From: Minisyncoccota bacterium
Lineage (GTDB): Bacteria; Patescibacteriota; Minisyncoccia; Phycocordibacterales; UBA9973
Assembly: GCA_028718635.1 (NCBI GenBank)
Contig: JAQULK010000001.1
Coordinates: 607,834 to 671,833 of the forward strand
DNA: 64,000 nt
Reading direction: 5' to 3'
The position numbers were made by a program, and so were the translations under genes. Positions within the stretch are counted from its first letter, which is position 1, and each line of letters begins with the position of its first letter. Shown piece by piece: positions 8,645 through 64,000 of this stretch. Below the pieces are notes generated by a model. That model was not told where the DNA came from, did not search any database, and saw only the letters and a list, made by a program, of their open reading frames with translations.

Positions 8645-10462
8645 TTAAAATAAAGTGGCTTTGATACGTCTAACACCTTGCGCAACTGCTTCTTCTTTTT
8701 GAATTTTAAATTTGCCCAATTCACCCGTATTGGAAACGTGCGGACCTCCACAGAATTCTCTGCTGAAATATCCTGTTTTTTCGTCTCCGATGGAGTAAAC
8801 TTTTACCATTTCTCCATATTTTTCATTAAAAGAATGTGTAGCGATTTTTTCTGCATCTGCTTTAGGCATTTCCACAAAACCAACCGGCAACTTTTCCGCA
8901 ATTTTATCATTTACAATTTCTTCCACTTTCTTCTTTTCTTCTTCGGTCATTTTTTGCGAATGAGTAAAATCAAAACGCAATCGCTCGCCGGTAATATTGC
9001 TTCCTTTTTGCATTACATGATTGCCGAGTACTTGCTTCAAAGCAGCATTCAGTAAATGTGTAGCAGTATGCAATTTTTTAGCTTCTTCCCCGCCGTCTGC
9101 CAGCCCGCCTTTAAACATCCCAGCAGAAGCAGAACGGGATTTTTCCTGATGATCCTTCAAGGCTTTATTTATTTCATCTTCGTCTACTTTGAATCCTAAG
9201 TCTTTGGCGGTGTTGACCAACAGCTCGATGGGATTTCCGTGTCTTTCAAAAAGAGTAAAGATAAATAATCCGGAAGCCGTATTTTTGTCTTTTAATATCG
9301 GAATATCTCCTGCTTTTTTTATGTTGCCTAATTTTGCAGCTTCCAGGTCAATACGGTATCTTTCAATTCCGTCAAAAGGCTTTTTAAATAATTTTTCTTC
9401 CTCCCTGATAACTGAAATAATATGATCAAATTTATTTTTTATTTCAGGATAAACTTTGTCATAAATTTCAGATATTAGAGAATTAAGTTCAATCCAGAAA
9501 TTATCTGAAAGTTTGATAATTGAGGCTTTAGAAAAAACTCTCCGAAGAAGACGGCGCAAAATATACCCGCGGCCAGTGTTAAAAGGCGTGACCTCGTCTA
9601 TGATCATAAATACTGCTGTACGAAAATGATCAGCAATAATTCGAGCAGAACGCAAATCATAATTTGCGCTTTTTTCTTTTATTAAATCCATCAACGGCTT
9701 GAACAAATCCGTCTCAAAAATATCATCTTTCCCTTGCACTGCCATTACTACTCGCTCGAGGCCCGCTCCGGTATCTACATTGCTTTGTTTGAGTTTCCCA
9801 ATTACTTTCCCATCAAACTTTTCGTATTCCATGAAAACATCGTTCCAGATTTCAATAACTTTCTGCTCCCCGTCAGCTTTCATGTATTCTTCTTTACTTA
9901 AATCTCCCAATCCTTCTTGCGTGATATCATAAAACATTTCAGTGTCAGGTCCACAGGGGCCATTGTCCCCCACGCTCCACCAATTCGATTTTGCGCTCAT
10001 ATAATAAATGCGATTTTCAGGGATATATTTTTTCCAAATATTAAAAGCTTCCGTGTCTTTGGGTGCGTTTTCATCACCTTCAAATACAGTTACATAAAGA
10101 CGTTTTGGGTCCAACCCTAAACCTTCCTCTTTGGAAGTTAAAAATTCATAGCTCCATTTTATAGCTTCTTCTTTAAAATAATCTCCAAGAGACCAATTGC
10201 CCATCATTTCAAAAAAAGTGTCATGAGTTTTATCCCCCACTTCGTCTATGTCTTGAGTGCGCACACACTTCTGAATGTTTACTAATCTGCTACCCATCGG
10301 ATGCTCCTCTCCTAGAAGATATGGCACAAGAGGTTGCATACCTGCAGTATTAAATAAAACAGAAGGATCATTTTCGGGTACTAGAGAAGCAGAAGGAATT
10401 ATTTTATGTCCTCGACTTTCAAAAAATTTTAGAAACCTTAATCTAATTTCGTCTGATTGCAT
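8645..10462 (-). CDS. alaS: Alanyl-tRNA synthetase, short form (catalytic plus editing domains; no C-Ala domain)
   Basis: N-terminus FESRGH..IPSASLVP.NDPSVLFNTAGMQP ... QKCVRTQDIDEVGDKTHDTFFEMMGNWSLGDYFK. C-terminus HTATHLLNAAL...CGGPHV editing-site motifs. Confidence 0.8.
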   Translation of the reverse strand: MQSDEIRLRFLKFFESRGHKIIPSASLVPENDPSVLFNTAGMQPLVPYLLGEEHPMGSRLVNIQKCVRTQDIDEVGDKTHDTFFEMMGNWSLGDYFKEEAIKWSYEFLTSKEEGLGLDPKRLYVTVFEGDENAPKDTEAFNIWKKYIPENRIYYMSAKSNWWSVGDNGPCGPDTEMFYDITQEGLGDLSKEEYMKADGEQKVIEIWNDVFMEYEKFDGKVIGKLKQSNVDTGAGLERVVMAVQGKDDIFETDLFKPLMDLIKEKSANYDLRSARIIADHFRTAVFMIIDEVTPFNTGRGYILRRLLRRVFSKASIIKLSDNFWIELNSLISEIYDKVYPEIKNKFDHIISVIREEEKLFKKPFDGIERYRIDLEAAKLGNIKKAGDIPILKDKNTASGLFIFTLFERHGNPIELLVNTAKDLGFKVDEDEINKALKDHQEKSRSASAGMFKGGLADGGEEAKKLHTATHLLNAALKQVLGNHVMQKGSNITGERLRFDFTHSQKMTEEEKKKVEEIVNDKIAEKLPVGFVEMPKADAEKIATHSFNEKYGEMVKVYSIGDEKTGYFSREFCGGPHVSNTGELGKFKIQKEEAVAQGVRRIKATLF

Positions 10463-10577
10463 CCCGTTAGAAGCAGGTTGCGGTCACCATACCGCAATTA
10501 TACTTAATTATGCTATTAAATTTTGTATTTCTTTTAAACATTAAATATATTTAACTGCGACCGCGGCTTCTAACGGG
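10463..10577. mobile_element. Start-codon-associated palindromic MITE-like element, copy 1, abutting the alaS ATG
   Basis: Terminal inverted repeats CCCGTTAGAAGCAGGTTGCGGTCA / TGCGACCGCGGCTTCTAACGGG. They are flanked by direct repeats ATGCAAT (10456-10462 and 10578-10584, minus sense). Confidence 0.6.
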
Positions 10578-10590
10578 ATTGCATACAACT

Positions 10591-13656: not shown

Positions 13657-15015
13657 TTATATTGGCAAATTCGTAGGCGGAGAAGCTTCTTTGGATTCGA
13701 TACGTTCAAGTGTAGGAACTTTCAAGATCTGACCTGGGAAGTGCCAGATTGTCGCAAGCTCTTCAACATTCAAAACATAAGTTTCGTGATGAGCATAGGC
13801 ATTTATTACAGAATCAAAAGGCCATTTCCAATGATGCTTTGAGAAAAGATGATGCCGAAGCGGAAGATGAAAAAAGGCACGCTCGCGATATTCATGAAGC
13901 ATTCTATTTGCCAGCATCATCACCGTTTCATTAGAGGCAAGAAAAGTACCGCTATAAAAATCCGCCTGAGCTGAATTTATACGATAAAATTCATTACAAT
14001 CAGGTCTGGCATATTGACGAAAGAGGAGACGCATGTTTCTTCTATTGCTCAAATTAAATACTTCTTTTTTTCCTATATACATTATGCGAACACCAGTTTC
14101 AAAACCTATCTTGGAAGTTTTGGCAGACATTGCCGCTACGGCATTTTTCAAAAAATCAGCAACACGAACCTCTATTCTTTTTGGTCCCTCACCCTTAAAA
14201 TCATCTTTAACAGCAGTATATGGTTTCAAAAATCTGAGCATTTCTTTTTTTGCCTCTTCTACCCAGCTATGTGGAACGTTATCAGAACCTGGTTTTGGTG
14301 TAATGACGATCTGGATCCATCCTTGCTCCCCTTTCTTGAGCGAACCGAAAAATTCTATCACTGGAGAAATAGGGTCAACTTTAAATTCTTCTTTTGGGTC
14401 TTTGTCTAATCCGAAATCAACATATGTTTTAATAGGATAAGCAAAATGTTTTGTCAATTTAAACTCGCATCCCCAGCCATTCCAAGCGCTCTCGGGACTA
14501 ATCTCATCCACAGCCAAAGTGTAATCCTCAACTACTTTTACCTGCGCTTGCGGATATTGCGCATACATCTGAGTCTCGATAAGATCTTTGATGCGTGAAG
14601 GCGTTCGTATATAAAAATGTACTTGTCCGTCGATAGACGCTATCTCCAATGAAAACCAAAACCAGACAGCGCCTTGCCAAAATTCTTCCTTGCCTCCTTT
14701 TATACTCCAATGATAAAGGGCATTAGTAAAAAAAAGTTCCATTGCTTTCGGGCTTCGCAATACCTCGCGCGGTGGGACTATTTCAAGCAACACAAACTCT
14801 ATGCCAGAAATAAAATCCTGCTGAACATAATGTACCCAAAGCTTCCAAGCGAGCCAGCCTAAAAATATCGTTCCGGCCAAGGCCAAAACCCCTATTTCGA
14901 GGTTGTATCTCCAAATCAAAAAACCCAGGATCACAACCACAATCCCAATCCAATAATTTTTTATAAAATCAAAAATCTTTTGCTCAATAGTTGGCCCCGT
15001 TTTTGCTTCCGCCAT
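13657..15015 (-). CDS. Hypothetical membrane protein (two N-terminal transmembrane helices)
   Basis: ORF only; no family recognised. It contains a half-copy of the REP hairpin at 14659-14672. Confidence 0.3.
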   Translation of the reverse strand: MAEAKTGPTIEQKIFDFIKNYWIGIVVVILGFLIWRYNLEIGVLALAGTIFLGWLAWKLWVHYVQQDFISGIEFVLLEIVPPREVLRSPKAMELFFTNALYHWSIKGGKEEFWQGAVWFWFSLEIASIDGQVHFYIRTPSRIKDLIETQMYAQYPQAQVKVVEDYTLAVDEISPESAWNGWGCEFKLTKHFAYPIKTYVDFGLDKDPKEEFKVDPISPVIEFFGSLKKGEQGWIQIVITPKPGSDNVPHSWVEEAKKEMLRFLKPYTAVKDDFKGEGPKRIEVRVADFLKNAVAAMSAKTSKIGFETGVRIMYIGKKEVFNLSNRRNMRLLFRQYARPDCNEFYRINSAQADFYSGTFLASNETVMMLANRMLHEYRERAFFHLPLRHHLFSKHHWKWPFDSVINAYAHHETYVLNVEELATIWHFPGQILKVPTLERIESKEASPPTNLPI

Positions 15016-15051: not shown

Positions 15052-15079
15052 CCCAGACAGCGCCTTAGGCGCTGTCTGG
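15052..15079. repeat. REP-like palindromic hairpin, copy 1
   Basis: CCCAGACAGCGCC TTAG GCGCTGTCTGG. The stop codon of the Y1 transposase gene lies in the loop. Confidence 0.6.
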
Positions 15080-15745
15080 TAAATCTTCTTCTTCAAGTAG
15101 AGAAGTTTTTCCTCTCTCCTTTCTAACTATTGAAACAATTTCGTCACAATGTTTTTTAAAATTTCTACTCCCATTAAAAATTTCTAATATCCTTTTTCCT
15201 TCCTCTTTTGAAACAATTTTAAAATTATTATTCTCGTATTCGTAATCACTAGCAATCGAAAGAGTTACTTTATTTTTTGGAATATTGTGAATTTGATAAT
15301 TTTTATTTACATAGCCAATGATTTTGTTAAAATAATTTTCATTACTAATGATTTGCGATTTAAAGGTTCCTTGAAAAAGTGACCCTGTGCGAGAATTTTT
15401 AATATTAAAGTAGGAAGTATATCCCGCTTGCAATTTTTGCATAAATTTAGCTATACCTCCATCCACTAACTGTTTTAAAACAAAATGAAAATGATTCGGA
15501 TTTAAACAATAAGTAGCAAAAGAAACCAATGGCTCTTTGGATACCTTAGACAACGCCTTAGGCACGGTCTTATCTTCATTTTTTCTTGCATTTCTTATGC
15601 TACCGATAATTTCTGTTTGATTAAATTCAGAAATACTTTCAATAAAGCGATCTAAGTCTTTCCTATTAAGAAAAATATCCCTTTTATCTACTCCACGATT
15701 GTAAATATGGTGGTACTCGCCCGTAACGATTGGTTGTTTTCTCAT
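15065..15745 (-). CDS. Y1 HUH transposase-like protein (IS200/RAYT-like TnpA homolog)
   Basis: YHHIYNRGVDKRDIF aligns to the IS200 TnpA start. NPNHFHFVL is the HxH motif. A C-terminal Y-containing helix is present. REP-like hairpins lie at both ends. Confidence 0.55.
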   Translation of the reverse strand: MRKQPIVTGEYHHIYNRGVDKRDIFLNRKDLDRFIESISEFNQTEIIGSIRNARKNEDKTVPKALSKVSKEPLVSFATYCLNPNHFHFVLKQLVDGGIAKFMQKLQAGYTSYFNIKNSRTGSLFQGTFKSQIISNENYFNKIIGYVNKNYQIHNIPKNKVTLSIASDYEYENNNFKIVSKEEGKRILEIFNGSRNFKKHCDEIVSIVRKERGKTSLLEEEDLPDSA

Positions 15746-15760
15746 TCTGTAAGTATAACA

Positions 15761-15785
15761 CAGACAGCGCCTAAGGCGCTGTCTG
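15761..15785. repeat. REP-like palindromic hairpin, copy 2
   Basis: CAGACAGCGCC TAAG GCGCTGTCTG. Confidence 0.6.
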
Positions 15786-24856: not shown

Positions 24857-25648
24857 TTACTGAAGGTTAGATGAAGAAGAACCTGTTTTTACAGACGCGG
24901 TTACCGATGCCAAAGCATCAGTAATAGTTTTTATTGAGGCAAAATTTGTCATATCATTAAAGAGAGCGATGCCGAGAGCTTCTCCGTCTAAATTTAACAC
25001 TAAGCCTCCGGCATTTGATTTAGTAACATTGATGTCAACATTCTTATTCCCTTCAAAAATAGAAGAAGATATGCTATTGCCAAAAAGTAAAACTCTCTGT
25101 CCCGCTTTCATTTTATCCAAATCCCCAAAAACTGGTACTGAAAAAGATAATTTATTTTTCACGTCAACTGTAGAGCCTATCTTCAGAAAAGAAAATCCGG
25201 ACTTGTCAGCTAAAATGAAATCTGCCTTGAATTTTCCGCTATCATTTTTTACATAATAAACTTCTTTGTCGGGAACGAGAGTCGCATCGGCTGCAATAAT
25301 TCCATCAGCAGAAACTACAAACCCTCTTCCTGCTCCCACTTCGACAGTTTTCAGATCTGCGTCTTGGGTTTCCTTAGTTATGGAAAACACAGCGGATTTA
25401 TTTTTGGCAATAGCATCTACTACCAGGTCTTCTTCTTTGATGACCACTGTTTGAACTGTTTTTTTCCCCTCCACTTGTTGAATTTTCTCAATTGTCTGCT
25501 GGACCACGTGATTAATCGGAGTAGTGATCGACGGCGGAGCCTGTTGCATTAAGGTCACAGTCGTTATACCTGTCGCAATGGAAGTAACAAAACTAAGCAA
25601 GATAGCGAGCAAAATAAGTTGAGTTTTATTTAATTCCTTGATATCCAT
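24857..25648 (-). CDS. Trypsin-like (HtrA/S1C-like) domain protein, probably catalytically inactive, membrane-anchored
   Basis: GAGRGFVVSADGIIAADATLV has no His where HtrA has TNNHVV. NAGGLVLNLDGEALGIAL has Ala in place of the GNSGG serine. Confidence 0.4.
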   Translation of the reverse strand: MDIKELNKTQLILLAILLSFVTSIATGITTVTLMQQAPPSITTPINHVVQQTIEKIQQVEGKKTVQTVVIKEEDLVVDAIAKNKSAVFSITKETQDADLKTVEVGAGRGFVVSADGIIAADATLVPDKEVYYVKNDSGKFKADFILADKSGFSFLKIGSTVDVKNKLSFSVPVFGDLDKMKAGQRVLLFGNSISSSIFEGNKNVDINVTKSNAGGLVLNLDGEALGIALFNDMTNFASIKTITDALASVTASVKTGSSSSNLQ

Positions 25649-25726
25649 CCCGTTAGAAGCAGGTCGCGGTCAATAATAATTTCATTTACTTTCCCGTCAA
25701 AAACTGCGACCGCGGCTTCTAACGGG
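25649..25726. mobile_element. Start-codon-associated palindromic MITE-like element, copy 2
   Basis: Terminal repeats CCCGTTAGAAGCAGGTCGCGGTCA / TGCGACCGCGGCTTCTAACGGG. ATGGAT direct repeats at 25643-25648 and 25727-25732 (minus sense). Confidence 0.6.
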
Positions 25727-25735
25727 ATCCATACC

Positions 25736-29505: not shown

Positions 29506-29577
29506 GGCCTGGTAGCCAAGTGGTAAGGCATTCCTCTGCAAAAGGAATATACGGCGGTTCAATTCCGCCCCAGGCCT
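29506..29577 (+). tRNA. tRNA-Cys (GCA)
   Basis: Cloverleaf: acceptor GGCCTGG/CCAGGCC, anticodon loop CTGCAAA, T-loop TTCAATT. Confidence 0.8.
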
Positions 29578-29579
29578 CA

Positions 29580-31229
29580 TTAAAATATGTTAAAATATTT
29601 TAAGATAAATAATTGCCCAAGTGGCGTAATTGGTAGCCGCGCAAGACTTAAAATTTTGTGACCGCAAGGTCGTGTGGGTTCGATTCCCACCTTGGGCACC
29701 AGAATAGAACTAGACGGTTTTTCAGAAACCAAAATGCGGGACGCGCGAAGCGCGTCCCAAGGATTCCCGCCGAATTCCCCCAACGAATTCAGAATTTTTG
29801 GCGCGCTTGCGCGCACTAATTTTTCGCCAAGAAGCAGGTTCGAGCCAAAGATTTCTTTGGCTTTGACCTTTTTTGCAAAAAGGTCATCATCAGAAGCAAT
29901 TTTGTCCAAGGATTGAGCGTCTTTTATCCATTCTTTCATCGGTTCGAGCCAATCATTCTGCTTGTGTGAAAGAGAGGTTATTTCTTCTTGGAGAGACTTC
30001 TTTTCAGATAACAACTTTGCTTTTTGATTTCGATAATCTTGTTCATCAATTACTTGGTCTAAATATCCTGTAAGAAGTCGCTCTAACTTTTGTGAAATGA
30101 CCGATAGTCTTGTTTCGTTCTCTTTCACACAAGCAGTCAAAGACGGGGCGGAATTGTTAAAATCTTTTTCTGCCATTTTTAACAATTCTTCCGCCCAGTC
30201 TTTGGGCAAAGAAACTTTTTGTATTTCGGATGATAACTGGCGATCCAATTCTTTTTCTCGAACGGCAGACTCGGAGCATTTTATAGTTTTAGATTTTTTT
30301 GTACAACGATAATATGTGTATTCATGGACATTACCATTTTTCTGCCGTTTGAATTTGTGTTCGCCAGTTATCATCATCCCACAAGAAGCACAGGAAATGA
30401 GTCCGCAAAATGGTTGAGGTTCGTTTTGTGGTTTTCGTTCGGGTTGTCCACGGAGTTTCAACATTTCCTGTGCTTCATCAAAAAGTTTCATTGAAATAAT
30501 TGGCTCATGAATACCTTCATGAATTTCTCCGCCATATTTAAACAAACCGATATAGAACGGATTAGAGAGGATAAAAGACGCTTTGGTTTTGGAGATTCTC
30601 TTTCCGGTTCGAGTGGTAACGCCGGACTTTGCCAAAAATGATGACACATCTTCCAGTCGCATATTTCCTTTTGTGTATTTCTCAAAAGCCAAGCGCACGA
30701 TGCGAGATTTTTTCTTTTCCACCACGATTGTTTTTGTTCGTGAATCGTTGAGATAACCCACTGGCGCTTGGCTTGGGAATATACCCATTCTGACTTTTTG
30801 GCGAAGTCCGCGTTTCGTATTTTCGGAAAGAGAATCGACATAGTATTTGCTTTGTACAAAGGCCATAGAGAGCGTAAATTTGCCCTGTGGCGTACTTTCA
30901 AACCAAAACTGTGGGAACTTAAGGCTCACAAGCAATCCGATGTCTAAAAAGTAGACAATCTTTCCACCGTCCACCGAATTGCGGGCCAAACGATCTGGAT
31001 GCCAAGAGAGAATACAATCTGCATCGCCCTTTTCAATACGCTTCATCATTTCATTAAAAATTGGACGACCTGGAATTTTAGCAGATTGTTTTTCGATAAA
31101 CTCTTGGGCGATGTTCAGATTTTCTCTCTTGGCGAACTCCCGCAATTCGGTGAGTTGTGCGTCAATTGATAAAACCTGCTTGTCTTCGACATCGGTTGAC
31201 TTGCGAGCATACAAAAAGAATTTTTGCAT
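29580..31229 (-). CDS. Large serine recombinase (integrase/invertase). The ORF reads through tRNA-Leu(TAA) on the opposite strand before reaching a stop.
   Basis: Resolvase catalytic N-terminus (YARKSTDVEDKQVLSIDAQ), recombinase domain, zinc ribbon (CGLISCASCG...YYRC), coiled-coil C-terminus. The last ~45 codons lie inside the 149-bp inverted repeat. Confidence 0.8.
   Translation of the reverse strand: MQKFFLYARKSTDVEDKQVLSIDAQLTELREFAKRENLNIAQEFIEKQSAKIPGRPIFNEMMKRIEKGDADCILSWHPDRLARNSVDGGKIVYFLDIGLLVSLKFPQFWFESTPQGKFTLSMAFVQSKYYVDSLSENTKRGLRQKVRMGIFPSQAPVGYLNDSRTKTIVVEKKKSRIVRLAFEKYTKGNMRLEDVSSFLAKSGVTTRTGKRISKTKASFILSNPFYIGLFKYGGEIHEGIHEPIISMKLFDEAQEMLKLRGQPERKPQNEPQPFCGLISCASCGMMITGEHKFKRQKNGNVHEYTYYRCTKKSKTIKCSESAVREKELDRQLSSEIQKVSLPKDWAEELLKMAEKDFNNSAPSLTACVKENETRLSVISQKLERLLTGYLDQVIDEQDYRNQKAKLLSEKKSLQEEITSLSHKQNDWLEPMKEWIKDAQSLDKIASDDDLFAKKVKAKEIFGSNLLLGEKLVRASAPKILNSLGEFGGNPWDALRASRILVSEKPSSSILVPKVGIEPTRPCGHKILSLARLPITPLGQLFILKYFNIF
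29625..29701 (+). tRNA. tRNA-Leu (TAA), CCA encoded. Its last nucleotides form the end of the 149-bp inverted repeat.
   Basis: Acceptor GCCCAAG/CTTGGGC, anticodon loop CTTAAAA, long variable arm, T-loop TTCGATT, ACCA tail. Confidence 0.8.
29695..29843. repeat. IR1-left: 149-bp inverted repeat overlapping the recombinase 3' end and the tRNA-Leu(TAA) 3' end
   Basis: Reverse-complement match to 31426-31574 with one mismatch. Confidence 0.85.
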
Positions 31230-38027: not shown

Positions 38028-39045
38028 GATAACCCTGTGTCTGTCTTAGGCACAGACATTTGGCGGTTTAATTAATTGATAATCTTCCAGAAATTCATTT
38101 GGCGTTTTTCCATTTAAACCGCAATGTTCTAGATTGTTGTAATATATATTCCATCTTTTTAATTTCTTTTGCAAATCTTTGAAACTTTTAAATTTGTTTT
38201 GCTCGTAGAATTTCTCTTGGTCTTCCCGATGGCTGCGTTCCACAGTGCCATTTTGAGCTGGCTTACCGGGATCAATCAAGTAATGGATGATATTGTTCTC
38301 ACGGCAAAAAATATCCAAAGGGTGTAGGGTTTTCACCCTAACATCACTTCTTTTGTTGGTTCCTAGGTAGTAATTGGTAAAAACAACCCCATTGTCTGTT
38401 TTAATCGCTTGGATTTTGTATTTAAATATTTGCATCACTTCTTTTAAAAACAGAATCGAATGAAAATTAGTTTGTTCATCGTAAACAGCTAGATGTCTCC
38501 ATCTTGAAGCTGTATCGATGGCTGTATATTGAAAATATCTTTTGTTTGCAATACGTCCAGGAACATATTTCACGTCAATTTCTAGTAGTTCTCCTGGTTG
38601 TCTTTCGGCTTTAATATATTTGTATTTGATTTTCTTTACCCGATATTTTCGCACCAAGTTTTCCTTTTTTAGAATCTTACCGACTGTTCGTTCGTGAATT
38701 TCAATACCTTCCTTCTTTAACTGCCAGTGTATTTTGAGTGCGCACTTTTTTGTTTTCTTTCTAACCTCAACCACTCTTTCTTTCATCCAAATTGGAGTTT
38801 CGTTTTCCTGTGTTTTCGGTTCAGTTGATTTAGGTTCCAGTCCTGCTTCTCCTTTCGCTTTATAGGTTGCTACCCAGCGTTCTAGGCTTCGTTTACTGTA
38901 TGGACAAACCCCAACTGTATCAACTATTTTAACTTTCTTCTTTACAATTGGCAGCACCCACCTCAACCTCTCTTCTTTGATTGTTTTAGCCATAGATATG
39001 CTCATTCCTCCATTTTAGGAGAAACCGCCATATGTGTGTGCACAT
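38028..39045. mobile_element. IS481-family insertion sequence (single DDE transposase, imperfect terminal inverted repeats)
   Basis: Ends GCACAGACATTTGGCGGTTT (left) and AAACCGCCATATGTGTGTGC (right) match about 18 of 20 as inverted repeats around the transposase ORF. Confidence 0.55.
38046..39005 (-). CDS. IS481-family DDE transposase (rve integrase core)
   Basis: N-terminal HTH; catalytic D (ELLEIDVKYV), D (AIKTDNGVVF), E (NGTVERSH) with IS481-like spacing. Confidence 0.75.
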   Translation of the reverse strand: MSISMAKTIKEERLRWVLPIVKKKVKIVDTVGVCPYSKRSLERWVATYKAKGEAGLEPKSTEPKTQENETPIWMKERVVEVRKKTKKCALKIHWQLKKEGIEIHERTVGKILKKENLVRKYRVKKIKYKYIKAERQPGELLEIDVKYVPGRIANKRYFQYTAIDTASRWRHLAVYDEQTNFHSILFLKEVMQIFKYKIQAIKTDNGVVFTNYYLGTNKRSDVRVKTLHPLDIFCRENNIIHYLIDPGKPAQNGTVERSHREDQEKFYEQNKFKSFKDLQKKLKRWNIYYNNLEHCGLNGKTPNEFLEDYQLIKPPNVCA

Positions 39046-40806: not shown

Positions 40807-41793
40807 TTACTTTTTATTTACCCTCAGTAATTCTACAACAAGAGCGACCATCTTGTCTTTGTGCCTTGGATCGCTTTCAGCTATTAAAAGAGTAATTGCA
40901 GTTAACCCTGTAGGATTGATATTGCGCGCTCCTCTTACCCTATTTTTTCTTAAAAACCAGATAAACGCAAAAGCTCCAGATCTTTTGTTGCCATCTATAA
41001 ACGGATGATTCTTCACCATAAAGTAAAGCAAATGCGCGGCTTTTTCCTCAAGTGTCTCGTAAACATCCTTCCCGCCAAAAGCCTGCATGACGTTGCCGAC
41101 AATGCCTTCGATACTTCCCCTTTCTCTTTCCGTGGCAAAAATATCCATGGCTTCAGACTTTTTTATTAATTCATTTTTAAGTTCAGAAATAGCTTTCAAA
41201 AGTTCTACGCCAGCAAGTTTTATCCTCTTTTTCGTCACACCAGCTTTTGTAAGTAAATCTTTATCATATGCATCAAGCTTCGCCCAAGTAATAGAATATT
41301 CTTTTACAAGATCTAAAATAGTTTTTGGGTCAAGAATTACATGTGTTGGCAATAATGCTTGAATATCAGAAACATTTTTCAAAAACTGATCGTAATTTTT
41401 AAGAACTACTTTTTTGTTTATGGTGTAGCCTTTTACAAGATGGTCATGTAAAGTCTTAGTCGCCCACTGACGAAATAATGTAGCTGTTTTGCTGTTAACT
41501 CTGTAGCCAACGGAAATAATCGCATCTAAATTGTAAAGTTGAGTACTATAAATTTTTCCATCGCTAGCAGTTATTCGGAATTTCCGAATAACTGATTTTT
41601 TATTCAATTCCTGATTTTTAAAAATATTTGCTAAGTGTTCGTTTATAGTTGGAACCGTAACTCCAAAAACCTCGGCTATCTGCGCTTGGGTAGCCCAGAT
41701 AGTCTCTCGAGAAAAATCTCCACGCAATTCTATCGCTCCATTTTTGGCTTGATAAATTATAAGTTTATTTTTTATTTGTTGTTTATCTTTCAT
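40807..41793 (-). CDS. RhuM-family N-terminal domain fused to a Fic/Doc (death-on-curing-like) domain
   Basis: N-terminus IIYQAKNGAIELRGDFSRETIWATQAQIAEVFGV...IRKFRITASDGKIYSTQLYNLDAIISVGYRVNS matches RhuM. The C-terminal HPFIDGNKRSGAFAFIWFL is the Fic motif HPFx[DE]GN[GK]R. Confidence 0.65.
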   Translation of the reverse strand: MKDKQQIKNKLIIYQAKNGAIELRGDFSRETIWATQAQIAEVFGVTVPTINEHLANIFKNQELNKKSVIRKFRITASDGKIYSTQLYNLDAIISVGYRVNSKTATLFRQWATKTLHDHLVKGYTINKKVVLKNYDQFLKNVSDIQALLPTHVILDPKTILDLVKEYSITWAKLDAYDKDLLTKAGVTKKRIKLAGVELLKAISELKNELIKKSEAMDIFATERERGSIEGIVGNVMQAFGGKDVYETLEEKAAHLLYFMVKNHPFIDGNKRSGAFAFIWFLRKNRVRGARNINPTGLTAITLLIAESDPRHKDKMVALVVELLRVNKK

Positions 41794-41928
41794 TCTCTTA
41801 TTTTACACTATTAACTTCTACCCAGCCAACGCACAAAGGGCGAATTTCGTTTACGAAATTCGCCCTTTATTAATTTCTATTGTATTTTCCCCTCTCCTTA
41901 ATTAAGGAGAGGGCTAGGATGAGGTGAA

Positions 41929-42258
41929 TTACTCACTCAAATGCACCGTTCCTGCTTCTGGATCTATCTCACCTTTAGATATCCCCAATGTATTCAGCAC
42001 AATTCCGAGGATAGTCCAAACTCCCATCATGATTGTTATCCCGACAACTCCCCAGATCATATGGTTTTTGCCAGTGGTTTTTTTTTCTTCGTTGGCTTGA
42101 TTTGAAAGAAATTCAAACACGCCATAAAGAAAATACACAATAGCTAAAGCAAACAAAAGTCCTATGAGTGGATTTATGATCATGGTATCAACGTTCCAAA
42201 TAAAACCATCAAAGGAAGATGAAGCCGCAAAAGCTATTTTTGTAGACAAAAAATCCAT
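41929..42258 (-). CDS. TrbC/VirB2-like pilin-fold small membrane protein, paralog 1
   Basis: Helix-loop-helix: a hydrophobic helix, a charged loop NQANEEKKTTGKNHMIWGVVG, then a second hydrophobic helix. This is the same layout as VirB2/TrbC pilins. Confidence 0.4.
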   Translation of the reverse strand: MDFLSTKIAFAASSSFDGFIWNVDTMIINPLIGLLFALAIVYFLYGVFEFLSNQANEEKKTTGKNHMIWGVVGITIMMGVWTILGIVLNTLGISKGEIDPEAGTVHLSE

Positions 42259-42376
42259 CCCGTTAGAGATAGGAAATGCAAAGCATTTCCGTAGTTATAT
42301 TACTTTTAATAAAAACTTTTAACATAAAATTATTTTCTCTATTATTTCAGATAATAAACTATATGATCTCTAACGG
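42259..42376. mobile_element. Start-codon-associated palindromic MITE-like element, copy 3 (variant interior)
   Basis: CCCGTTAGAGAT...ATCTCTAACGGG. ATGGAT direct repeats at 42253-42258 and 42377-42382 (minus sense). Confidence 0.55.
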
Positions 42377-42395
42377 GATCCATACTTTATTTAAT

Positions 42396-42779
42396 TTATT
42401 GATTTAGTGTGGGTAAAATAACATTAACATCATTGCTGCCAGTAAGACCAAAAGTATTGGTTAAAATATTTACAAGACCCCACAAAGCTACGATAACCGC
42501 AAAACCGATAATGCCGTAAATCACTCTATCTCTACCTTTTTTCTTTGCTTCTTCGTCACTTCCGATCATATAAGAAACAACTCCCCATACAAACCAAACT
42601 ACAGCTAAGGCGATCAAAACTGGAACAACAGCGTTAAGAAGTTGTCCTATTTTACACAACACTGAACCTATGTCTGTAATTGTTCCTGCATTACAATTAC
42701 CACCAAAAGTCGCCGCAAATGCAGCAACAGGCGCTAAACTTGAAACAAAACCTGTCAATACGATTAATTTCTTTTTCAT
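42396..42779 (-). CDS. TrbC/VirB2-like pilin-fold small membrane protein, paralog 2
   Basis: Signal peptide, a cysteine pair, then LNAVVPVLIALAVVWFVWGVVSYMIGSDEEAKKKGRDRVIYGIIGFAVIVALWGLVNIL. Confidence 0.45.
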   Translation of the reverse strand: MKKKLIVLTGFVSSLAPVAAFAATFGGNCNAGTITDIGSVLCKIGQLLNAVVPVLIALAVVWFVWGVVSYMIGSDEEAKKKGRDRVIYGIIGFAVIVALWGLVNILTNTFGLTGSNDVNVILPTLNQ

Positions 42780-42895
42780 CCCGTTAGAAGCAGGTCGCGA
42801 TCTTAATTAATTTTAAAATCTATAAAATCAGACCCACTAAATTTATACTTATAATAATTTCCCGACTATAAACCGTGACCGCGGCTTCTAACGGG
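42780..42895. mobile_element. Start-codon-associated palindromic MITE-like element, copy 4
   Basis: CCCGTTAGAAGCAGGTCGCGATC...GTGACCGCGGCTTCTAACGGG. ATGAA direct repeats. Confidence 0.6.
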
Positions 42896-42943
42896 ATTCA
42901 TAACCCCAATAATTATACCTTCTCTAAAAAATCAAAGCAAATT

Positions 42944-43744
42944 CTAATGTGGAGGAGTGACCTGTGGAAGAACTGAAGTGCCAACACCAAAGGTAGTGCC
43001 AAGTATCCCCACCAACCCCCAAACAGACAACATCACTGCTAAAGCAATAATACCCCAGATCATGAATTGCTTGCCTTGCGCTCTTTTTGCTTCTTCGTCA
43101 GCATTAAGTATAAAAAACTGCACTACCCCCCAGACAAACATAACGGTAGCCACGGCAAAAATCAAAGGAATTACGGCGCTATTGATAATGCCAGTAATAT
43201 AGGTTAATACATCTTGAAATTTTGGATTACTAGTAAGAGTGGAAGTAGAGCCAGTACCACCACCTACTGAAGACAAAGATGGCGGAGTAGTACCACCAAG
43301 ACCAAAAGTCGTAGTAATAATATTCACCAACCCCCACAAACCAATGATGACCGCAAAACCAATGACTCCATAAATTATTCTATCTTTTCCTTTTTTCTTC
43401 GCTTCTTCCCCATCAGCGATTACATACTGCACTACTCCCCAGACAAAATAGACCACCCCAAGAGCCACTAAAACCGGAACAATAGAATTGAGAATTTCCT
43501 TAAATTGACATATTATTTTCCCTATACCATTCAAAGAATCACACGTACTAGAAATTGGAATACCACTACAAGTTCCATCTGGAAGCATTCCCGAACCATC
43601 ACTGCATGTACCTACAAATCTGCTATCAAGAGCAAAAGTCATCATTGGAAACAAAACTAATAAAGAAAATATAAGACTAAACTTTTTTATTTTTTGCATA
43701 ATTCGTAATTCGTAATTGATAATTCGTAATTGCTTATAAAGCAA
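42944..43744 (-). CDS. Tandem-duplicated TrbC/VirB2-like protein (two helix-loop-helix modules), paralog 3
   Basis: Two repeats of the ADGEEAKKKGKDRIIYGVIG / NADEEAKRAQGKQFMIWGIIA loop, each flanked by hydrophobic helices. The N-terminal part is cysteine-rich. Confidence 0.45.
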   Translation of the reverse strand: MLYKQLRIINYELRIMQKIKKFSLIFSLLVLFPMMTFALDSRFVGTCSDGSGMLPDGTCSGIPISSTCDSLNGIGKIICQFKEILNSIVPVLVALGVVYFVWGVVQYVIADGEEAKKKGKDRIIYGVIGFAVIIGLWGLVNIITTTFGLGGTTPPSLSSVGGGTGSTSTLTSNPKFQDVLTYITGIINSAVIPLIFAVATVMFVWGVVQFFILNADEEAKRAQGKQFMIWGIIALAVMLSVWGLVGILGTTFGVGTSVLPQVTPPH

Positions 43745-44171
43745 GTACTGTCGCTGATATCATTTTAGCGATAGCCCAAGCTCCTAATAATATCGCTGCA
43801 CCAATCAAAGTGTAAAGAAGCGCATCTTTGGCTTTGGTCAATTCAGTTGGCTTGCCTTGAGCTTTTACAAAAAGAAAGCCACAGTAAATGATAGCAAGCG
43901 CGACGATAGGCATACCGATTTTAATCACACCCTGCAATATGGCTTGAATTAAATCTGATATTAAGGGAAATTTACCACCTAAGGGATCAACAATTTTACC
44001 GCCACCCCCAGAAGCGGTACCATCAGTATCTCCAGCAAAAGAAATAATTGGAATAATTAACACATAAACTGCTAAAATTATCTTATACCAACCTCTCTTA
44101 ATAAAATTCTTTTTCATCTTGTTTTCATTATAACTCATATTAGAGAGGATTGAAACCAATCCAACTGCCAC
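43734..44171 (-). CDS. TrbC/VirB2-like small membrane protein, paralog 4. The real start is probably the internal ATG near 44117.
   Basis: Signal peptide followed by a two-helix hydrophobic core with a KAQGKPTELTKAKD loop. Confidence 0.35.
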   Translation of the reverse strand: MAVGLVSILSNMSYNENKMKKNFIKRGWYKIILAVYVLIIPIISFAGDTDGTASGGGGKIVDPLGGKFPLISDLIQAILQGVIKIGMPIVALAIIYCGFLFVKAQGKPTELTKAKDALLYTLIGAAILLGAWAIAKMISATVLAL

Positions 44172-44520
44172 TGTAGCCTAGAATATATAGTACTGTTTTA
44201 ATAATCAAAAAAGCTGCCACCGCGATAATCAGCCCGAGAACTGTATTAGTAAAAACAGAATTTGCTCTAGTCCTCGCTCCCGATGACCCACCCGAAGTGA
44301 CAAAGAGAAACCCCGCATAAACAAACATAATAGCCGAAATAGGTATAACCATATCAAAAAGAATAAAATGAATTACTCTATTTATAAGATCCATAAATTC
44401 TTTAAAACCACAATTCGTATCGCATTGTACCAAAGGCGTACTTCCTGCTAAAGAGACAACGGGAATAATCAGAATCAAAAAAACAAGAAGGTCTATGGTA
44501 AATTTTGTTTTGCTTTGCAT
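44140..44520 (-). CDS. TrbC/VirB2-like small membrane protein, paralog 5
   Basis: Signal peptide, CDTNC cysteines, two hydrophobic helices separated by a GGSSGARTRA loop. Confidence 0.35.
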   Translation of the reverse strand: MQSKTKFTIDLLVFLILIIPVVSLAGSTPLVQCDTNCGFKEFMDLINRVIHFILFDMVIPISAIMFVYAGFLFVTSGGSSGARTRANSVFTNTVLGLIIAVAAFLIIKTVLYILGYSGSWIGFNPL

Positions 44521-44543
44521 ACCTGTCCGCCTGTGGCGGAAAT

Positions 44544-45833
44544 TTATTTTAATAATAATAATTGCAATTTAGTATTCGCGTCCTTGACCGCATCTGCTAC
44601 TGATAAATTGTTAGAAATCACCGCATTGGTCATCACGCCGAAAATATTGTCAGTGTCTTTCGGCGAAGGATCGAGCCAGCTTTTCCCATACAATGCTGAG
44701 CTATAGAAAATAGGAGAAAAGGCATCTTGAGGTTTGACGGCGAGCAAGTCCCGGCGCGCTGGAGGCACGCCCGTTGCCACGGCAAACTTTGAAGCAAAAT
44801 CCGAAGTCGCCATCTGGCTCGCTGCCAGGAAGGCTGTGCTGATATTTTTTGAAAAAGAAGAAATAGCAATTCCGGTCACCCTTGCTCTAGTGGTTTTAAA
44901 AGTGGCATCTCTGATCTGAGGCATCCCCGCGACAAAGAAATTTTGATTAGGATTTCTTTTTACTAGGGACTGCAGCTCGGAGGCATAGCCGAAATAAAAA
45001 GCTAAATCCTCCCGAGAAAAAGCGTCGTCAGAATTAGGAAATGATTTATTCCAAGAATATGCAGGATTGTTCGGATCTGCAAAATCCGTATAGAATTTTA
45101 ACATTGAAGGCAAATTGAAATTTCCAATTGAAGAATCTAAGGTCGAACCCAAAACTCCGTCCGTCTCTTTCACGATGGGGTTGCCAGCTTGCATAAAAAG
45201 AGTAGCCAGGATGTCTTTGAAATGAATGATGTTTGAAGAATATCCAAAGGCTATAGCGCTTTTTATTATTTTATTTGAATCATCTTTTTTTGTAAGGAGA
45301 GGCGCGACTTTCGCCACATCATCCCAGTAAGCCGGAGGATAGACGACTCCATTCGCATCAAGCATGCTCCTGTTGTAATACATCATAAGCGGATCAATAG
45401 AGATTGGAAAAGCTAAAATTCCGTTCTTTGTTAAAAAGACTTCTCCTGCGCCGGCAAAATTATTTTTAAATAAAGACAGAGAATAGCTCTGATACGGAAT
45501 GGTGAAAATTTTATCTGTGTAATGAAAAACCAAATTGTCAGGCAAAAAAAACATATCCGGTCCTGTTCCAGAAGCGGCTGCCTCGAGTAAATCTTGATCA
45601 AAAGTATCAGCAGATTTTTGCACATAAGTGACAGAAAAAGTAGTATTAGCATTATTAAAATCCTTCATTACGGATGACATCGTCGCCTCAGGCACTGTTC
45701 CCCATAAAACTACATCGCCCAGACTGCCCGCGCCGCCTTTGCCTATTGGAATAGCGCCAGAAAAAACCAAAATACCCAAAATACCTGCAGCAATAAATAT
45801 GATTAAAATGATTAGTTTAAAATTTCCTTTCAT
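44544..45833 (-). CDS. Extracellular solute-binding-protein-like (SBP family 1 type) membrane-anchored protein
   Basis: N-terminal transmembrane anchor followed by a periplasmic-binding-protein-like domain (GTGPDMFFLPDN, multiple W/Y-rich sugar-binding-type segments). Confidence 0.4.
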   Translation of the reverse strand: MKGNFKLIILIIFIAAGILGILVFSGAIPIGKGGAGSLGDVVLWGTVPEATMSSVMKDFNNANTTFSVTYVQKSADTFDQDLLEAAASGTGPDMFFLPDNLVFHYTDKIFTIPYQSYSLSLFKNNFAGAGEVFLTKNGILAFPISIDPLMMYYNRSMLDANGVVYPPAYWDDVAKVAPLLTKKDDSNKIIKSAIAFGYSSNIIHFKDILATLFMQAGNPIVKETDGVLGSTLDSSIGNFNLPSMLKFYTDFADPNNPAYSWNKSFPNSDDAFSREDLAFYFGYASELQSLVKRNPNQNFFVAGMPQIRDATFKTTRARVTGIAISSFSKNISTAFLAASQMATSDFASKFAVATGVPPARRDLLAVKPQDAFSPIFYSSALYGKSWLDPSPKDTDNIFGVMTNAVISNNLSVADAVKDANTKLQLLLLK

Positions 45834-45949
45834 CCCGTTAGAGACAGGTCGCGATCTTCGCTACCTGTGAATTATTGTTAATATAGTTGATCGTCATAAA
45901 ATTATTGATTTATTTATTATATTACTTCGTGACCGCGGTCTCTAACGGG
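45834..45949. mobile_element. Start-codon-associated palindromic MITE-like element, copy 5
   Basis: CCCGTTAGAGACAGGTCGCGATC...GTGACCGCGGTCTCTAACGGG. ATGAA direct repeats. Confidence 0.6.
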
Positions 45950-45951
45950 AT

Positions 45952-46467
45952 TCATTGTTTAGTTAATATCATACCATAATGGTGGTCTCCTGCATCAATT
46001 TCTCTATCCAAAGTAAAGCCTTTTTTCTCAAACTTTTCTTCCGCCTTAGCTTTGGGAACAATAGAGGTTCCGCTCATGATCGAAGACTCTGACCAGTCGA
46101 TCAACAAAACTCTCCCCTTTGGCTTTAATATTCTTTTTATTTCTTCAATAAACTTTTCTTTATCTTCTATTTGAAAAAGTATATTTGAAACGATAACAGC
46201 ATCCGCTATTTCATCGCCGATCTTTGTTCCACCGGGCTTTTCCGCATCTCCTAAAATAATCTCGACATTGTCTAAATGAGCTTCGAGTATTTTTCTTTTA
46301 ATAGTATCCAAAAAATCTTTTTGCAATTCGACAGCGTACACTTTTCCTTTCGGCACGATGGCTCCCAGTGCGATAGAATAAAATCCAGTTCCCGCACCTA
46401 AATCCGCTACAATATTATCTTCCCTTAATCCAAAAGCTTTTAAATTTTTTACCGGATCGGTGAACAT
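45952..46467 (-). CDS. Class I SAM-dependent methyltransferase
   Basis: Motif I VADLGAGTGFYSIALG, motif II AVIVSNIL, post-II ...LKPKGRVLLIDW. Confidence 0.65.
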   Translation of the reverse strand: MFTDPVKNLKAFGLREDNIVADLGAGTGFYSIALGAIVPKGKVYAVELQKDFLDTIKRKILEAHLDNVEIILGDAEKPGGTKIGDEIADAVIVSNILFQIEDKEKFIEEIKRILKPKGRVLLIDWSESSIMSGTSIVPKAKAEEKFEKKGFTLDREIDAGDHHYGMILTKQ

Positions 46468-63040: not shown

Positions 63041-63905
63041 TTTCGTTAAACTACGAATTTGTGTTCCCACCGAACGGACGGATTTCCCGTATTCGGCGAG
63101 CTCTAATGCATGTGTTGTTTTAAGGAATACAACTTCTTTAATCCAGATTCTTTTAAATGTATACCATTATCAATCATCGAAAACATTTTGCAAAATATAT
63201 CGAAATCTTTCTTTTTTGAAGGAAATTTCAATATGTGTTTCTTGAAAAATGGAATTATGACTGATTTTAGGTCGTTTCTATTGTAAACTTCATATCTATA
63301 ACAATTTTGATGATTGGGACGCGTATCTTTTTGAAAATACACACTGCCACAACCAAAGAAATTTTTTAATTGATATAAAATCTTTTTATCTTTCTCAACA
63401 AGTTTCAAATAAAATTTTGGTTCTATTTTAACTCTCCGAGAATGAGAAACTTTAGAAGGATTTCGAACGTAAACAGTAAAACTGCCTTCGCCATCCACTA
63501 AACCTATAATGTAATCTGGGTTAATGTTTTGCATAGAGTGAATACCTTCCCTTGACATAAGGTCGAGGTACTATGATTCAGCTGACTTCTGACGCTGCGT
63601 AAGTTTAATTATATCATATCTTTCGAAATGACAACAACATCAGATCTCCACAGGTCACTTAAAATTCTTTTCCAAACATCCCAAACGAGCTTTTCTACGA
63701 GTTTTCCCTACCCTCACCACCCACTAGTAGGTCAACTGACTCTTTTTTATGTCGGGCTGCTCTTTGTTTCCAGATCCTCCACCATTTACCTCGCGGTAAA
63801 AGGCTATCTTTCTACTACGCTTCGATTACGAATCGAAGGAATGGATTTAAACCATTTAGAAAATTAAGCTGCTGCGCGCTTTTATTGTGAGTACAAGACT
63901 TGAGA
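63041..63905 (-). mobile_element. Intron (group I type presumed) inside the 16S rRNA gene, carrying a LAGLIDADG homing-endonuclease ORF
   Basis: The exon sequence CTTGTAC / CGCCCGTC is split by ~860 bp of non-rRNA sequence that contains the endonuclease ORF on the same strand. Confidence 0.65.
63103..63558 (-). CDS. LAGLIDADG homing endonuclease (intron-encoded)
   Basis: IIGLVDGEGSF motif; ~150-aa single-motif LAGLIDADG layout. Confidence 0.75.
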   Translation of the reverse strand: MSREGIHSMQNINPDYIIGLVDGEGSFTVYVRNPSKVSHSRRVKIEPKFYLKLVEKDKKILYQLKNFFGCGSVYFQKDTRPNHQNCYRYEVYNRNDLKSVIIPFFKKHILKFPSKKKDFDIFCKMFSMIDNGIHLKESGLKKLYSLKQHMH

Positions 63906-63952
63906 ACGTATTCACCGCAGTTTAGCTGACCTGCGATTACTAGCAATTCCAG

Positions 63953-63988
<36 letters not shown>

Positions 63989-64000
63989 AGGGCCACTTTT

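Follow-up and report, generated by a model that had tools for sequence, protein, structure and literature searches.

The 64-kb stretch of chromosome analysed here (contig JAQULK010000001.1 of the Minisyncoccota bacterium assembly GCA_028718635.1), which we refer to as the window, carries five consecutive genes coding for VirB2/TrbC-type pilins behind a gene coding for a solute-binding protein (SBP), and two of these pilin genes as well as the SBP gene have a palindromic element of about 120 nucleotides (nt) at their start codon. We consider it likely that the genes form a vertically inherited operon of an ultra-small Paceibacterota (Nomurabacteria-like) bacterium, which codes for VirB2-type pilins of a type IV secretion system (T4SS) pilus and on which the start-codon mobile element has been superimposed. 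Of the whole finding, this element, which is real and widespread, most deserves to be followed up.

An array of VirB2-like pilin genes behind a solute-binding protein gene

Five adjoining open reading frames (ORFs) occupy the minus strand at 41929-44520, and the SBP gene lies directly upstream on the same strand (44544-45833). In order of coordinate, pil1 (41929-42258) codes for a VirB2-like pilin paralog of 109 amino acids (aa) with two hydrophobic helices, pil2 (42396-42779) for a VirB2-like pilin of 127 aa, whose signal-like N-terminus is accompanied by a Cys pair at positions 29/42, a DEEAKKKGRDR loop and two helices, pil3 (42944-43699) for a protein of 251 aa that contains two pilin modules but a single signal-like N-terminus, as well as four Cys residues, pil4 (43734-44117) for a TrbC/VirB2-like pilin of about 127 aa, and pil5 (44140-44520) for a divergent pilin-like paralog of 126 aa, which has a Cys pair at positions 33/37 and whose N-terminus is signal-like. 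The start of pil3 was taken as the ATG at 43699; the version in the ORF list has 266 aa and starts from a TTG, and the 251-aa sequence is identical to the NCBI 'pilin' MDD5721481. For pil4 the start is uncertain (ATG 44117, ATG 44138 or GTG 44171), the earlier starts giving 134-145 aa, and the 127-aa version differs from the database sequence. The proteins of the operon are deposited in NCBI as MDD5721479-86 (locus tags such as PHT16_03495) under a genome labelled Candidatus Pacebacteria/Paceibacterota, where an exact-sequence look-up returned the name 'pilin' for pil2 and pil3 and 'extracellular solute-binding protein' for the upstream gene.

The five genes belong to the VirB2/TrbC superfamily. 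About 50 ORFs of the window were taken through hidden Markov model (HMM) family scans, in which pil1, pil2, pil3 and pil4 scored 32.6, 41.9, 72.8 and 30.8 bits, respectively, against the T4SS_pilin model PF18895 (cut-off 26.6), and pil4 also passed the TrbC model PF04956 (30.7 bits, cut-off 27.9). Pil5 stayed under the PF18895 cut-off with 19.9 bits, and a profile of its orthologs matched that of the pil2 family (hhalign, 92.8% probability, E 4e-7); the match extends over 110 columns, among them those of the Cys pair. All six modules, of which pil3 contributes two separate PF18895 stretches, align as a hydrophobic helix, a short charged loop (e.g. DEEAKKKGRDR) and a second hydrophobic helix. 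Hydropathy likewise gives two hydrophobic segments per module, as well as a signal-like N-terminus in pil2 to pil5, and the AlphaFold2 (AF2) model of pil2 (predicted local distance difference test, pLDDT, 71) consists of a signal helix followed by a two-helix hairpin (helices 3-24, 37-72 and 76-109). A preliminary description of this DNA, made from the sequence alone, had reported five consecutive minus-strand genes downstream of an SBP-like gene, one of them carrying the module twice, and had matched them to VirB2/TrbC pilins; all three statements were borne out. The family is very large: a search of 1.84 billion proteins with its profile gave 44,591 representatives at E<=1e-3. Giant 'poly-pilin' relatives with 10-17 tandem modules and up to 1775 aa (P0250, P0276, P0287 and others) were also seen, and with relatives of up to 17 modules the two-module pil3 is not unusual.

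The SBP gene codes for a 429-aa, membrane-anchored homolog of the SBP_bac_1 family (PF01547, E 1.3e-17, 65 bits against a cut-off of 26) with an N-terminal hydrophobic segment at residues 1-31. Directly upstream of it lies a gene for a class I S-adenosylmethionine-dependent methyltransferase (45952-46467, minus strand, 171 aa), a position that is kept among the relatives. At the other end, a terminator-like hairpin 3' of pil1 (41835-41868), a perfect 16-bp palindrome with flanking T/A runs, has the look of a terminator acting in both directions, and the operon probably ends here.

Conservation of the operon

Related or element-bearing loci from other samples are given here as L-numbers (L001, L002, L039, L123-L125, L127-L129 etc.). 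The order gyrA, methyltransferase gene, SBP gene and five pilin genes recurs in seven related loci (L001, L002, L123, L124, L125, L127 and L128), with six pilin genes in L124. The pilin genes of these loci are one-to-one orthologs in the same order, down to an SBP identity of 62-68%, and the middle pilin gene has the double module in all seven. The SBP orthologs are 62-90% identical, their gene is always the first one before the five or, in L124, six pilin genes, and in L124 and L125 it overlaps the first pilin gene. The core order is also seen in L039, in which a gyrA-sized ORF, one more gene and the SBP ortholog are followed by three pilin-like ORFs up to the end of the locus. As the paralogs within the window are only 19-59% identical, their duplications appear to be old, and together with the one-to-one orthologs in fixed order this indicates an ancient and stably inherited array. 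Compared with L127, identities are 86% for gyrA, 68% for the methyltransferase, 68% for the SBP and 54-60% for the pilins; judged from these sequences, the pilin orthologs diverge only slightly faster than their neighbours and the array does not appear to be a recent, fast-evolving expansion.

Relation to published pilin arrays and to T4SS components

Patescibacteria have been described, in 2023 and again in 2025, as carrying VirB2-like pilin genes in tandem arrays of 2-11. In the study of 2025, 3,035 Patescibacteria genomes were searched with PF04956 and PF18895, and VirB2-like pilins were found in 1,948 VirB4-holding assemblies, with a pilin gene near virB4 in only 1,135 (Quinonero-Coronel et al., 2025; PMC12102498). 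A total of 441 arrays of 2-11 pilin genes were described in 383 assemblies, most abundantly in Microgenomatia and Saccharimonadia, with a mean identity of 25% and a maximum of 54% (PMC12102498). Ca. Southlakia epibionticum ML1 has six divergent VirB2-like pilins in its T4SS locus, a cluster that is essential according to transposon sequencing (PMC12857230), and the Southlakia pilin array itself has been called essential (PMC12102498). The array of the window is alike in consisting of tandem, divergent PF18895/PF04956-type genes in a chromosome of the candidate phyla radiation (CPR), outside a relaxase context and with a similarly low paralog identity (19-59%). With five tandem genes of low identity it is a new member of a described kind, to which it contributes an example from Paceibacteria; the identification as pilins is correct, though not novel. 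It differs from the published arrays in that it lies in a Paceibacteria lineage away from any VirB4 ATPase and in that an SBP_bac_1 gene precedes it in an operon that is strictly conserved. The term 'solute-binding' has 0 occurrences in PMC12102498, the linkage of an SBP gene and the array is not mentioned there, and the metagenome-assembled genome analysed here is not listed in its supplement. With the TrbC/VirB2/TraA pilins of diderm T4SSs, the proteins share a signal, two hydrophobic helices and a short charged loop, and pil4 passes the TrbC cut-off; here, however, mating-pair-formation genes are not adjacent, five paralogs and a two-module fusion are present and the host is a monoderm.

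Besides the array, just one T4SS-related gene was seen in the window, located 27 kb from the pilin genes (13657-15015, minus strand) and coding for a 452-aa protein with two N-terminal transmembrane helices, whose homologs carry PF26449 (DUF8128). It is 65-87% identical among its 120 best matches, and we found no Walker A motif or P-loop in its sequence. When its AF2 model (37 homologs, pLDDT 70.9, predicted template modelling score 0.68) was compared with the PDB using Foldseek, the top 14 matches were all TrwK/VirB4 chains of the R388 T4SS (E 5.4e-5 to 4.3e-3, probability 0.89-1.00). As the fold matches are exclusively TrwK/VirB4, the modelled protein looks like a TrsD-like T4SS component. 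TrsD, which resembles the N-terminal part of VirB4, is the most abundant T4SS-related protein in Patescibacteria (PMC12102498). The DUF8128 protein shares with TrsD and the VirB4 N-terminal domain a predicted fold that matches only TrwK/VirB4 and the lack of an ATPase motif; it differs in that the likeness is one of predicted fold alone and in that its gene does not adjoin a VirB4 ATPase gene, neither in the window nor in the relative L129.

A mobile element at start codons

Five copies of the element are present in the window, all on the minus strand and all abutting an ATG: at the starts of pil1 (42257-42379, 123 nt, ATCCCGTTAGAG...CTCTAACGGGAT), pil2 (42778-42897, 120 nt), the SBP gene (45832-45951, 120 nt), alaS (10461-10579, with ATGCA(AT) duplicated) and a trypsin-like peptidase gene (25647-25728, a shorter copy of 82 nt with ATGGAT duplicated). 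Read on the gene strand, these copies have the form ATG-R-(ATCCCGTTAGA...TCTAACGGGAT)-G-R, in which the terminal AT of the element together with the next G makes up the start codon of the gene. The 13-mer terminus of the element occurs 10 times in the window, compared with 1.1 occurrences expected, and none of 100 shuffled sequences reached 10. The arms pair over 14-25 bp, with a 4-nt ACCT-like bulge on the gene-proximal arm, and the RNA hairpins are predicted to have free energies of -36 to -46 kcal/mol (z -4.1 to -6.1), with -40.3 kcal/mol (z -5.7) for the pil1 copy, -41.5 (z -4.1) for the pil2 copy and -35.9 (z -5.5) for the SBP copy.

Comparison with the relatives L001, L002, L124 and L129 gave four clean pairs of empty and filled sites with exact target duplication. 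At pil1, the empty site in L001 and L002 reads ...AAAT|ATGGATTTT, whereas the window has ATGG[element]GGATTTT, with the duplicated ATGG at 42380-42383. The site in the peptidase gene is empty in L001 and L124 (ATGGAT duplicated) and that in alaS is empty in L129 (ATGCAAT duplicated). In L124 and L128, the stop codon of the methyltransferase gene and the start codon of the SBP gene overlap in an ATGA; in the window, the TGA stop codon of the methyltransferase gene comes from the left ATGA duplicate and the ATG of the SBP gene from the right one. The SBP start of L039 also carries a copy, and its interior is unlike that of the window copy, which suggests independent insertions. The pil2 copy has a duplicated ATGA upstream of it, and its position is taken by unrelated sequence in the relatives. 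In L001 (11715-11756, 12778-12819 and 12821-12862) and also in L002, a 42-nt hairpin repeat, CCGTAGTAGAACTTTGCATAAAGTTTCACYACNGGRTATAAT, with a TATAAT box at its end is found upstream of two pilin genes; one copy occupies the position of the window's pil2 element. With its first bases, CCCGTAG..., this repeat is similar to the start-codon element's termini.

The elements thus have terminal inverted repeats (TIRs), small size, no transposase gene, target duplication, insertion polymorphism and multiple copies, as is characteristic of MITEs (miniature inverted-repeat transposable elements), and they behave as non-autonomous mobile DNA. The preliminary description had placed a MITE at the starts of three pilin genes. 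It was correct in that the elements are real and behave as mobile DNA, but the three genes are two pilin genes, pil1 and pil2, and the SBP gene, and the elements are not tags of pilin genes, as they are also located at the starts of alaS and the peptidase gene and, elsewhere, in front of diverse genes, 123 of which fell into 104 clusters.

Neither of two transposase types encoded in the window qualified as the parent of the element. An IS481-type transposase gene (rve and HTH domains; 38046-39005, minus strand), beside which two sequences that resemble each other when inverted, GTGCACACACATATGGCGGTTT... and ...AAACCGCCAAATGTCTGTGC, are found, was rejected as it has different inverted repeats, and Y1_Tnp-like genes were rejected on account of their own, unrelated hairpins in the window and in L001. 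The Y1_Tnp gene of the window (IS200-like, PF01797; 15065-15745, minus strand, 226 aa) is absent from L129 and is flanked on both sides by direct hairpin copies, CAGACAGCGCC(T)TAGGCGCTGTCTG, at about 15750-15785 and 15055-15080. A different Y1_Tnp gene lies between gyrA and the methyltransferase gene in L001, L002 and L124, and the L001 copy is flanked by TGTCAAGGGGCATCCTTGACA hairpins. No copies of the element were found on IMG/VR viral contigs.

Distribution, target and orientation of the element

GTDB representative genomes were scanned for exact matches to the two 11-nt termini of the element spaced 80-110 nt apart, the flanks not being part of the pattern. The element was found in at least 120 contigs from more than 100 assemblies. 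The counts of copies, flanks and taxa that follow, here and in the weighing of explanations below, are those among the matches listed. Most of these contigs belong to Patescibacteria of many classes, and two short ones are labelled Gammaproteobacteria. A few loci with other non-CPR labels (L065, L081, L082 and L092, Sedimentisphaerales/Planctomycetes; L018 and L086, Omnitrophota; L062, WOR-3) have copies with the same termini, the same ATG flanks and an interior subfamily of their own (ATCCCGTTAGACCTC...), which could reflect horizontal spread or mis-binning. Element length ranges from 78 to 133 nt, the 11-nt termini being invariant.

An ATG is formed at one end of the element in 138 of 141 copies, and an ORF of at least 60 codons starts from it in 126 of 144 oriented cases (median 234), as opposed to 22% of random ATGs of the same loci (median 20). 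The left flank is an ATG in 109/144 cases and the duplicated dinucleotide matches in 110/144. The flank consensus (A84 T85 G83 R96, element, G100 R93 A92, in percent) points to ATGRA as the target, of which the ATG and 1-3 further bases are duplicated. The interior of the element is asymmetric, and its orientation follows the gene in 117/132 copies and in 58/60 well-matched pairs. The element is not gene-specific: among the products of its downstream genes, whose number of clusters is given above, the N-termini of TopA, BipA, MurG and GlyRS are recognisable. The left duplicate provides the stop codon of the upstream gene in 15/132 copies. The old ATG opens a short ORF, M(N/D)PVR..., of 6-49 codons, the only coding potential of the element, which spans the whole element in 38/104 copies, compared with 0-18 times for the other frames; such a spanning ORF ends with a TAA in the terminal repeat, with an ATGA overlap or by in-frame fusion with the gene. 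In all five copies of the window the upstream ORF stops early.

Tandem copies sharing one ATGA junction are present in L014 (5897-6280), L064 (5471-5712), L111 (6502-6722) and L017 (near 7791), and represent one element inserted at the ATG made by another. L014 also has a variant terminus, ATCCCGTAGT.

Relation to known repeat families

No description of the element was found in the literature searched, of which the coverage was incomplete, and an earlier description elsewhere is possible. The Correia/NEMIS elements of Neisseria and other bacterial MITEs are 80-130 nt long, have TIRs, duplicate their target, occur in many copies and are co-transcribed as long hairpins. The element described here shares with them its length, TIRs, target duplication, copy number and non-coding hairpins; it differs in that it targets a start codon (ATGRA) which is regenerated by the duplication, in that its orientation is fixed relative to the gene, and in that it spans many Patescibacteria classes as well as other phyla with no parent insertion sequence known. 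Rickettsia palindromic elements insert in frame and are translated within the host protein. They are likewise palindromic mobile elements that are tolerated in the coding landscape of reduced genomes and leave genes intact, whereas the element described here stays outside the protein, the old ATG opening a short upstream ORF and the gene receiving a new ATG. Hairpin-forming repeats and Y1_Tnp-like genes, which are found in the window (15065-15745) and in relatives, are reminiscent of the REP/REPIN system with its RAYT (Y1) transposases. However, the Y1 genes here have hairpins of their own (CAGACAGCGCC...GGCGCTGTCTG in the window and TGTCAAGGGGCATCCTTGACA in L001), and the element duplicates its target, which Y1 transposition does not. 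An integron attC site was rejected, as the GTT...AAC cores are oppositely arranged.

Weighing the explanations

Four observations speak against a T4SS pilus encoded by the operon. Pil1 lacks both a hydrophobic signal segment at its N-terminus and Cys residues; the earlier claim that each of the five genes has a signal peptide, a Cys-containing segment and a helix-loop-helix core therefore held for the core, which is present in all six modules, but not for the other two features, as Cys pairs are found only in pil2, pil3 and pil5 and pil4 lacks a Cys-containing extracellular segment. The fold search of the PDB with the pil2 model gave no match at E<=0.001, and a PDB sequence search with the pilins returned nothing informative, both of which we attribute to the simplicity of the pilin fold, a helical hairpin. 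VirB4 ATPase, VirB6, VirB3 and VirD4 genes were found neither in the window, where, in agreement with the preliminary description, none of the roughly 50 ORFs scanned matched the VirB4, VirB6 or VirD4 families, nor within 8-10 kb of the array in the seven relatives; tblastn with PrgJ and PcfC of pCF10 as queries likewise gave nothing, whether in the window or in roughly 1 Mb of CPR loci, and the large genes beside pilin-like ORFs in L004 and L026, in which VirB4 or VirD4 was sought, are housekeeping genes. Lastly, the matches of the DUF8128 protein to VirB4 have low TM-scores (0.26-0.32). One might speculate that the two-helix proteins are integral membrane partners of the SBP in an anchoring or uptake complex without a T4SS, the 'pilin' label reflecting no more than a shared hairpin topology. 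The pilin genes invariably follow straight after the SBP gene, which sometimes, as in L124 and L125, overlaps the first of them, no VirB4 ATPase gene is nearby, matches to ABC permease and ATPase partners (BPD_transp, ABC_tran) were absent from the window and from the relatives' loci, and the fold search cannot separate this hairpin from other helical hairpins. We nevertheless regard such a complex as unlikely, as the curated cut-offs of two independent pilin models are passed, including that of TrbC/VirB2 itself, related arrays adjoin virB4 in many Patescibacteria, the T4SS cluster including its pilin genes is essential in Southlakia, and a VirB4-N-like protein is encoded in the same window. 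That the genes code for type IV pilus or competence pseudopilins has next to no probability, even though CPR bacteria use type IV pili (PMC12857230) and an FtsA/PilM-like gene is present elsewhere in the window: the class III prepilin motif (G/FTLIE-type, with a G/F-x-x-x-E N-terminus) is absent from all five sequences, the signal-like N-termini are of the ordinary type, each module has two hydrophobic helices, so that the sequences already refute type IV pilins, and the Pfam and NCBIfam output held no type IV pilin family. The preliminary description had favoured paralog expansion in a fast-evolving surface-filament or secretion-related locus; on this view the expansion would be recent, and the MITEs could mark or drive pilin variation. 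The pilin orthologs are indeed less similar to those of L127 than SBP and GyrA are, one relative has a sixth pilin gene, and the presence of the element varies between close relatives. Against this stand the one-to-one orthologs in fixed order in seven loci, the age of the duplications indicated by the low paralog identity, and element copies at the starts of alaS, the peptidase gene, the SBP gene and diverse genes elsewhere; a recent expansion thus seems very unlikely and, as far as synteny can tell, is largely refuted.

For the element, the question is whether it is mobile DNA that seeks out start codons. The palindromes might instead be immobile, conserved cis-acting structures, i.e. RNA hairpins or protein-binding palindromes at the 5' ends of particular genes. 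The hairpins are very stable and pair the AU of the start codon, the elements keep one orientation with respect to the gene, their termini remain conserved from phylum to phylum, and a whole-element upstream ORF is found in 38/104 copies, with 0-18 for the other frames. We think this quite unlikely, as copies are present or absent at orthologous sites in close relatives with exact target duplication, tandem and nested copies occur, the downstream genes are unrelated, the SBP starts of the window and L039 carry copies with different interiors, which suggests independent insertion, and no Rfam family was matched, either at the gathering threshold or at E<=5. That the element is mobile does not preclude a secondary regulatory role. 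Two simple ways of influencing expression were considered and rejected: an internal promoter, as TATAAT-like hexamers are alike on both strands (109 vs 114 of 132 copies), although one copy has a 10-of-12 promoter-like match, and a Shine-Dalgarno sequence supplied by the element, as its core is present in the last 22 nt of only 7/132 copies. Two points count against a mobile family that targets start codons. No transposase-bearing, long parent copy was found in about 1 Mb of loci. Moreover, ATGRA occurs in the window at 25 gene starts, at 40 other intergenic positions and at 334 coding positions, so that, with gene-disrupting insertions lost, about 38% of copies would be predicted at starts; the observed share is 5/5 in the window and about 87% overall, and the association with starts could partly reflect retention rather than targeting. 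Taking these points together, we judge the chances to be evenly balanced that the element represents an undescribed, phylum-spanning mobile family which homes to start codons via ATGRA, in one orientation and with the ATG duplicated.

Proposed mechanism and implications

In the proposed operon, the methyltransferase gene is followed by the gene of the membrane-anchored SBP homolog and by five divergent T4SS_pilin genes, one of them a two-module fusion. Based on published work on Patescibacteria, the pilins would be inserted through Sec, and the literature further suggests that they could be extracted from the membrane and polymerised by a monoderm-type T4SS encoded elsewhere in the genome. The resulting pilus or conduit might be used on a host cell, with the paralogs serving as major and minor or as alternative subunits. 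More speculatively than any of these steps, the co-transcribed SBP homolog would probably be located at the same surface, where it could act in ligand capture or as an adhesin. The strictly conserved link with an orphan SBP could hint at what the putative T4SS pilus of episymbionts binds or imports.

With regard to the element, we propose that the sequence of about 120 nt inserts at ATGRA and duplicates the ATG and 1-3 further bases, by which an intact start codon would be kept. Where the target is an ATGA overlap, the stop codon of the upstream gene would be kept as well. The original ATG would then open the short upstream ORF, which would often stop right at the new start codon, and the real ATG would come to lie at the foot of a very stable hairpin. 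Its persistence at starts could be explained by the choice of target (ATGRA, in fixed orientation) combined with the fact that both flanking genes are left intact. Owing to the hairpin and the upstream ORF, pil1, pil2 and the SBP gene probably differ in translation or transcript processing from their counterparts in element-free relatives. If this is true, the element would be a transposon that rides on the translation-initiation sites of tiny, tightly packed genomes, and a transposon that selects and repairs start codons would be unusual in its choice of target. It may then rewire the expression of about 8% of genes (5/59 in the window), including the pilin operon, and might provide upstream-ORF or hairpin control in organisms with weak Shine-Dalgarno usage. 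Where genomes are difficult to annotate, the element would also serve as a natural marker of the true starts of translation. Southlakia is genetically tractable, so that the effect of the element on expression could be directly tested there.

Other features of the window

The window is otherwise ordinary chromosome with genes for ribosomal proteins, rpoA, alaS, clpB, infB, gyrA, mur ligases and secA. Within the operon, a short ACGAATT-type tandem repeat (43700-43745, minus strand) abuts the start of pil3, which has no copy of the palindromic element, and a small GC hairpin, CCGCCACAGGCGG (44523-44540), followed by ACAGGT-ATG, lies directly upstream of pil5. A CCGCC(A/T)NNGGCGG hairpin followed by ACAGGT or ACAAGC and ATG is also found before the gyrA and pil5-ortholog starts (L001 5913-5946 and 11296-11329), and may represent a motif of a short leader or terminator. 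The pilin operon is followed directly on its downstream side by a RhuM/Fic-domain gene (40807-41793, minus strand), which is found at the same place in L124 and is absent from L001, L123, L125, L127 and L128, indicating a variable insertion point.

Further away, a 417-aa protein (7314-8567, plus strand) has a Walker A motif, GPSRSGKS, at position 213 and weak similarity to AAA_18; its gene, which runs counter to the neighbouring ones, is missing in L129, a syntenic relative. The tRNA-Leu gene (29615-29701, plus strand), with tRNA-Cys beside it, lies within the span of a gene for a large serine recombinase of 549 aa (29580-31229, minus strand), and this region (29506-31229) may be an integrated element at a tRNA gene. 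The GC skew changes sign at about 28-34 kb, and a 1137-aa beta-helix protein is encoded after the recombinase region. Finally, a LAGLIDADG homing-endonuclease gene (63103-63558, minus strand) lies beside a truncated 16S rRNA match (63840-64000), which covers model positions 1278-1533 in only 161 nt, and this arrangement looks like the intron-bearing rRNA genes known from CPR bacteria.

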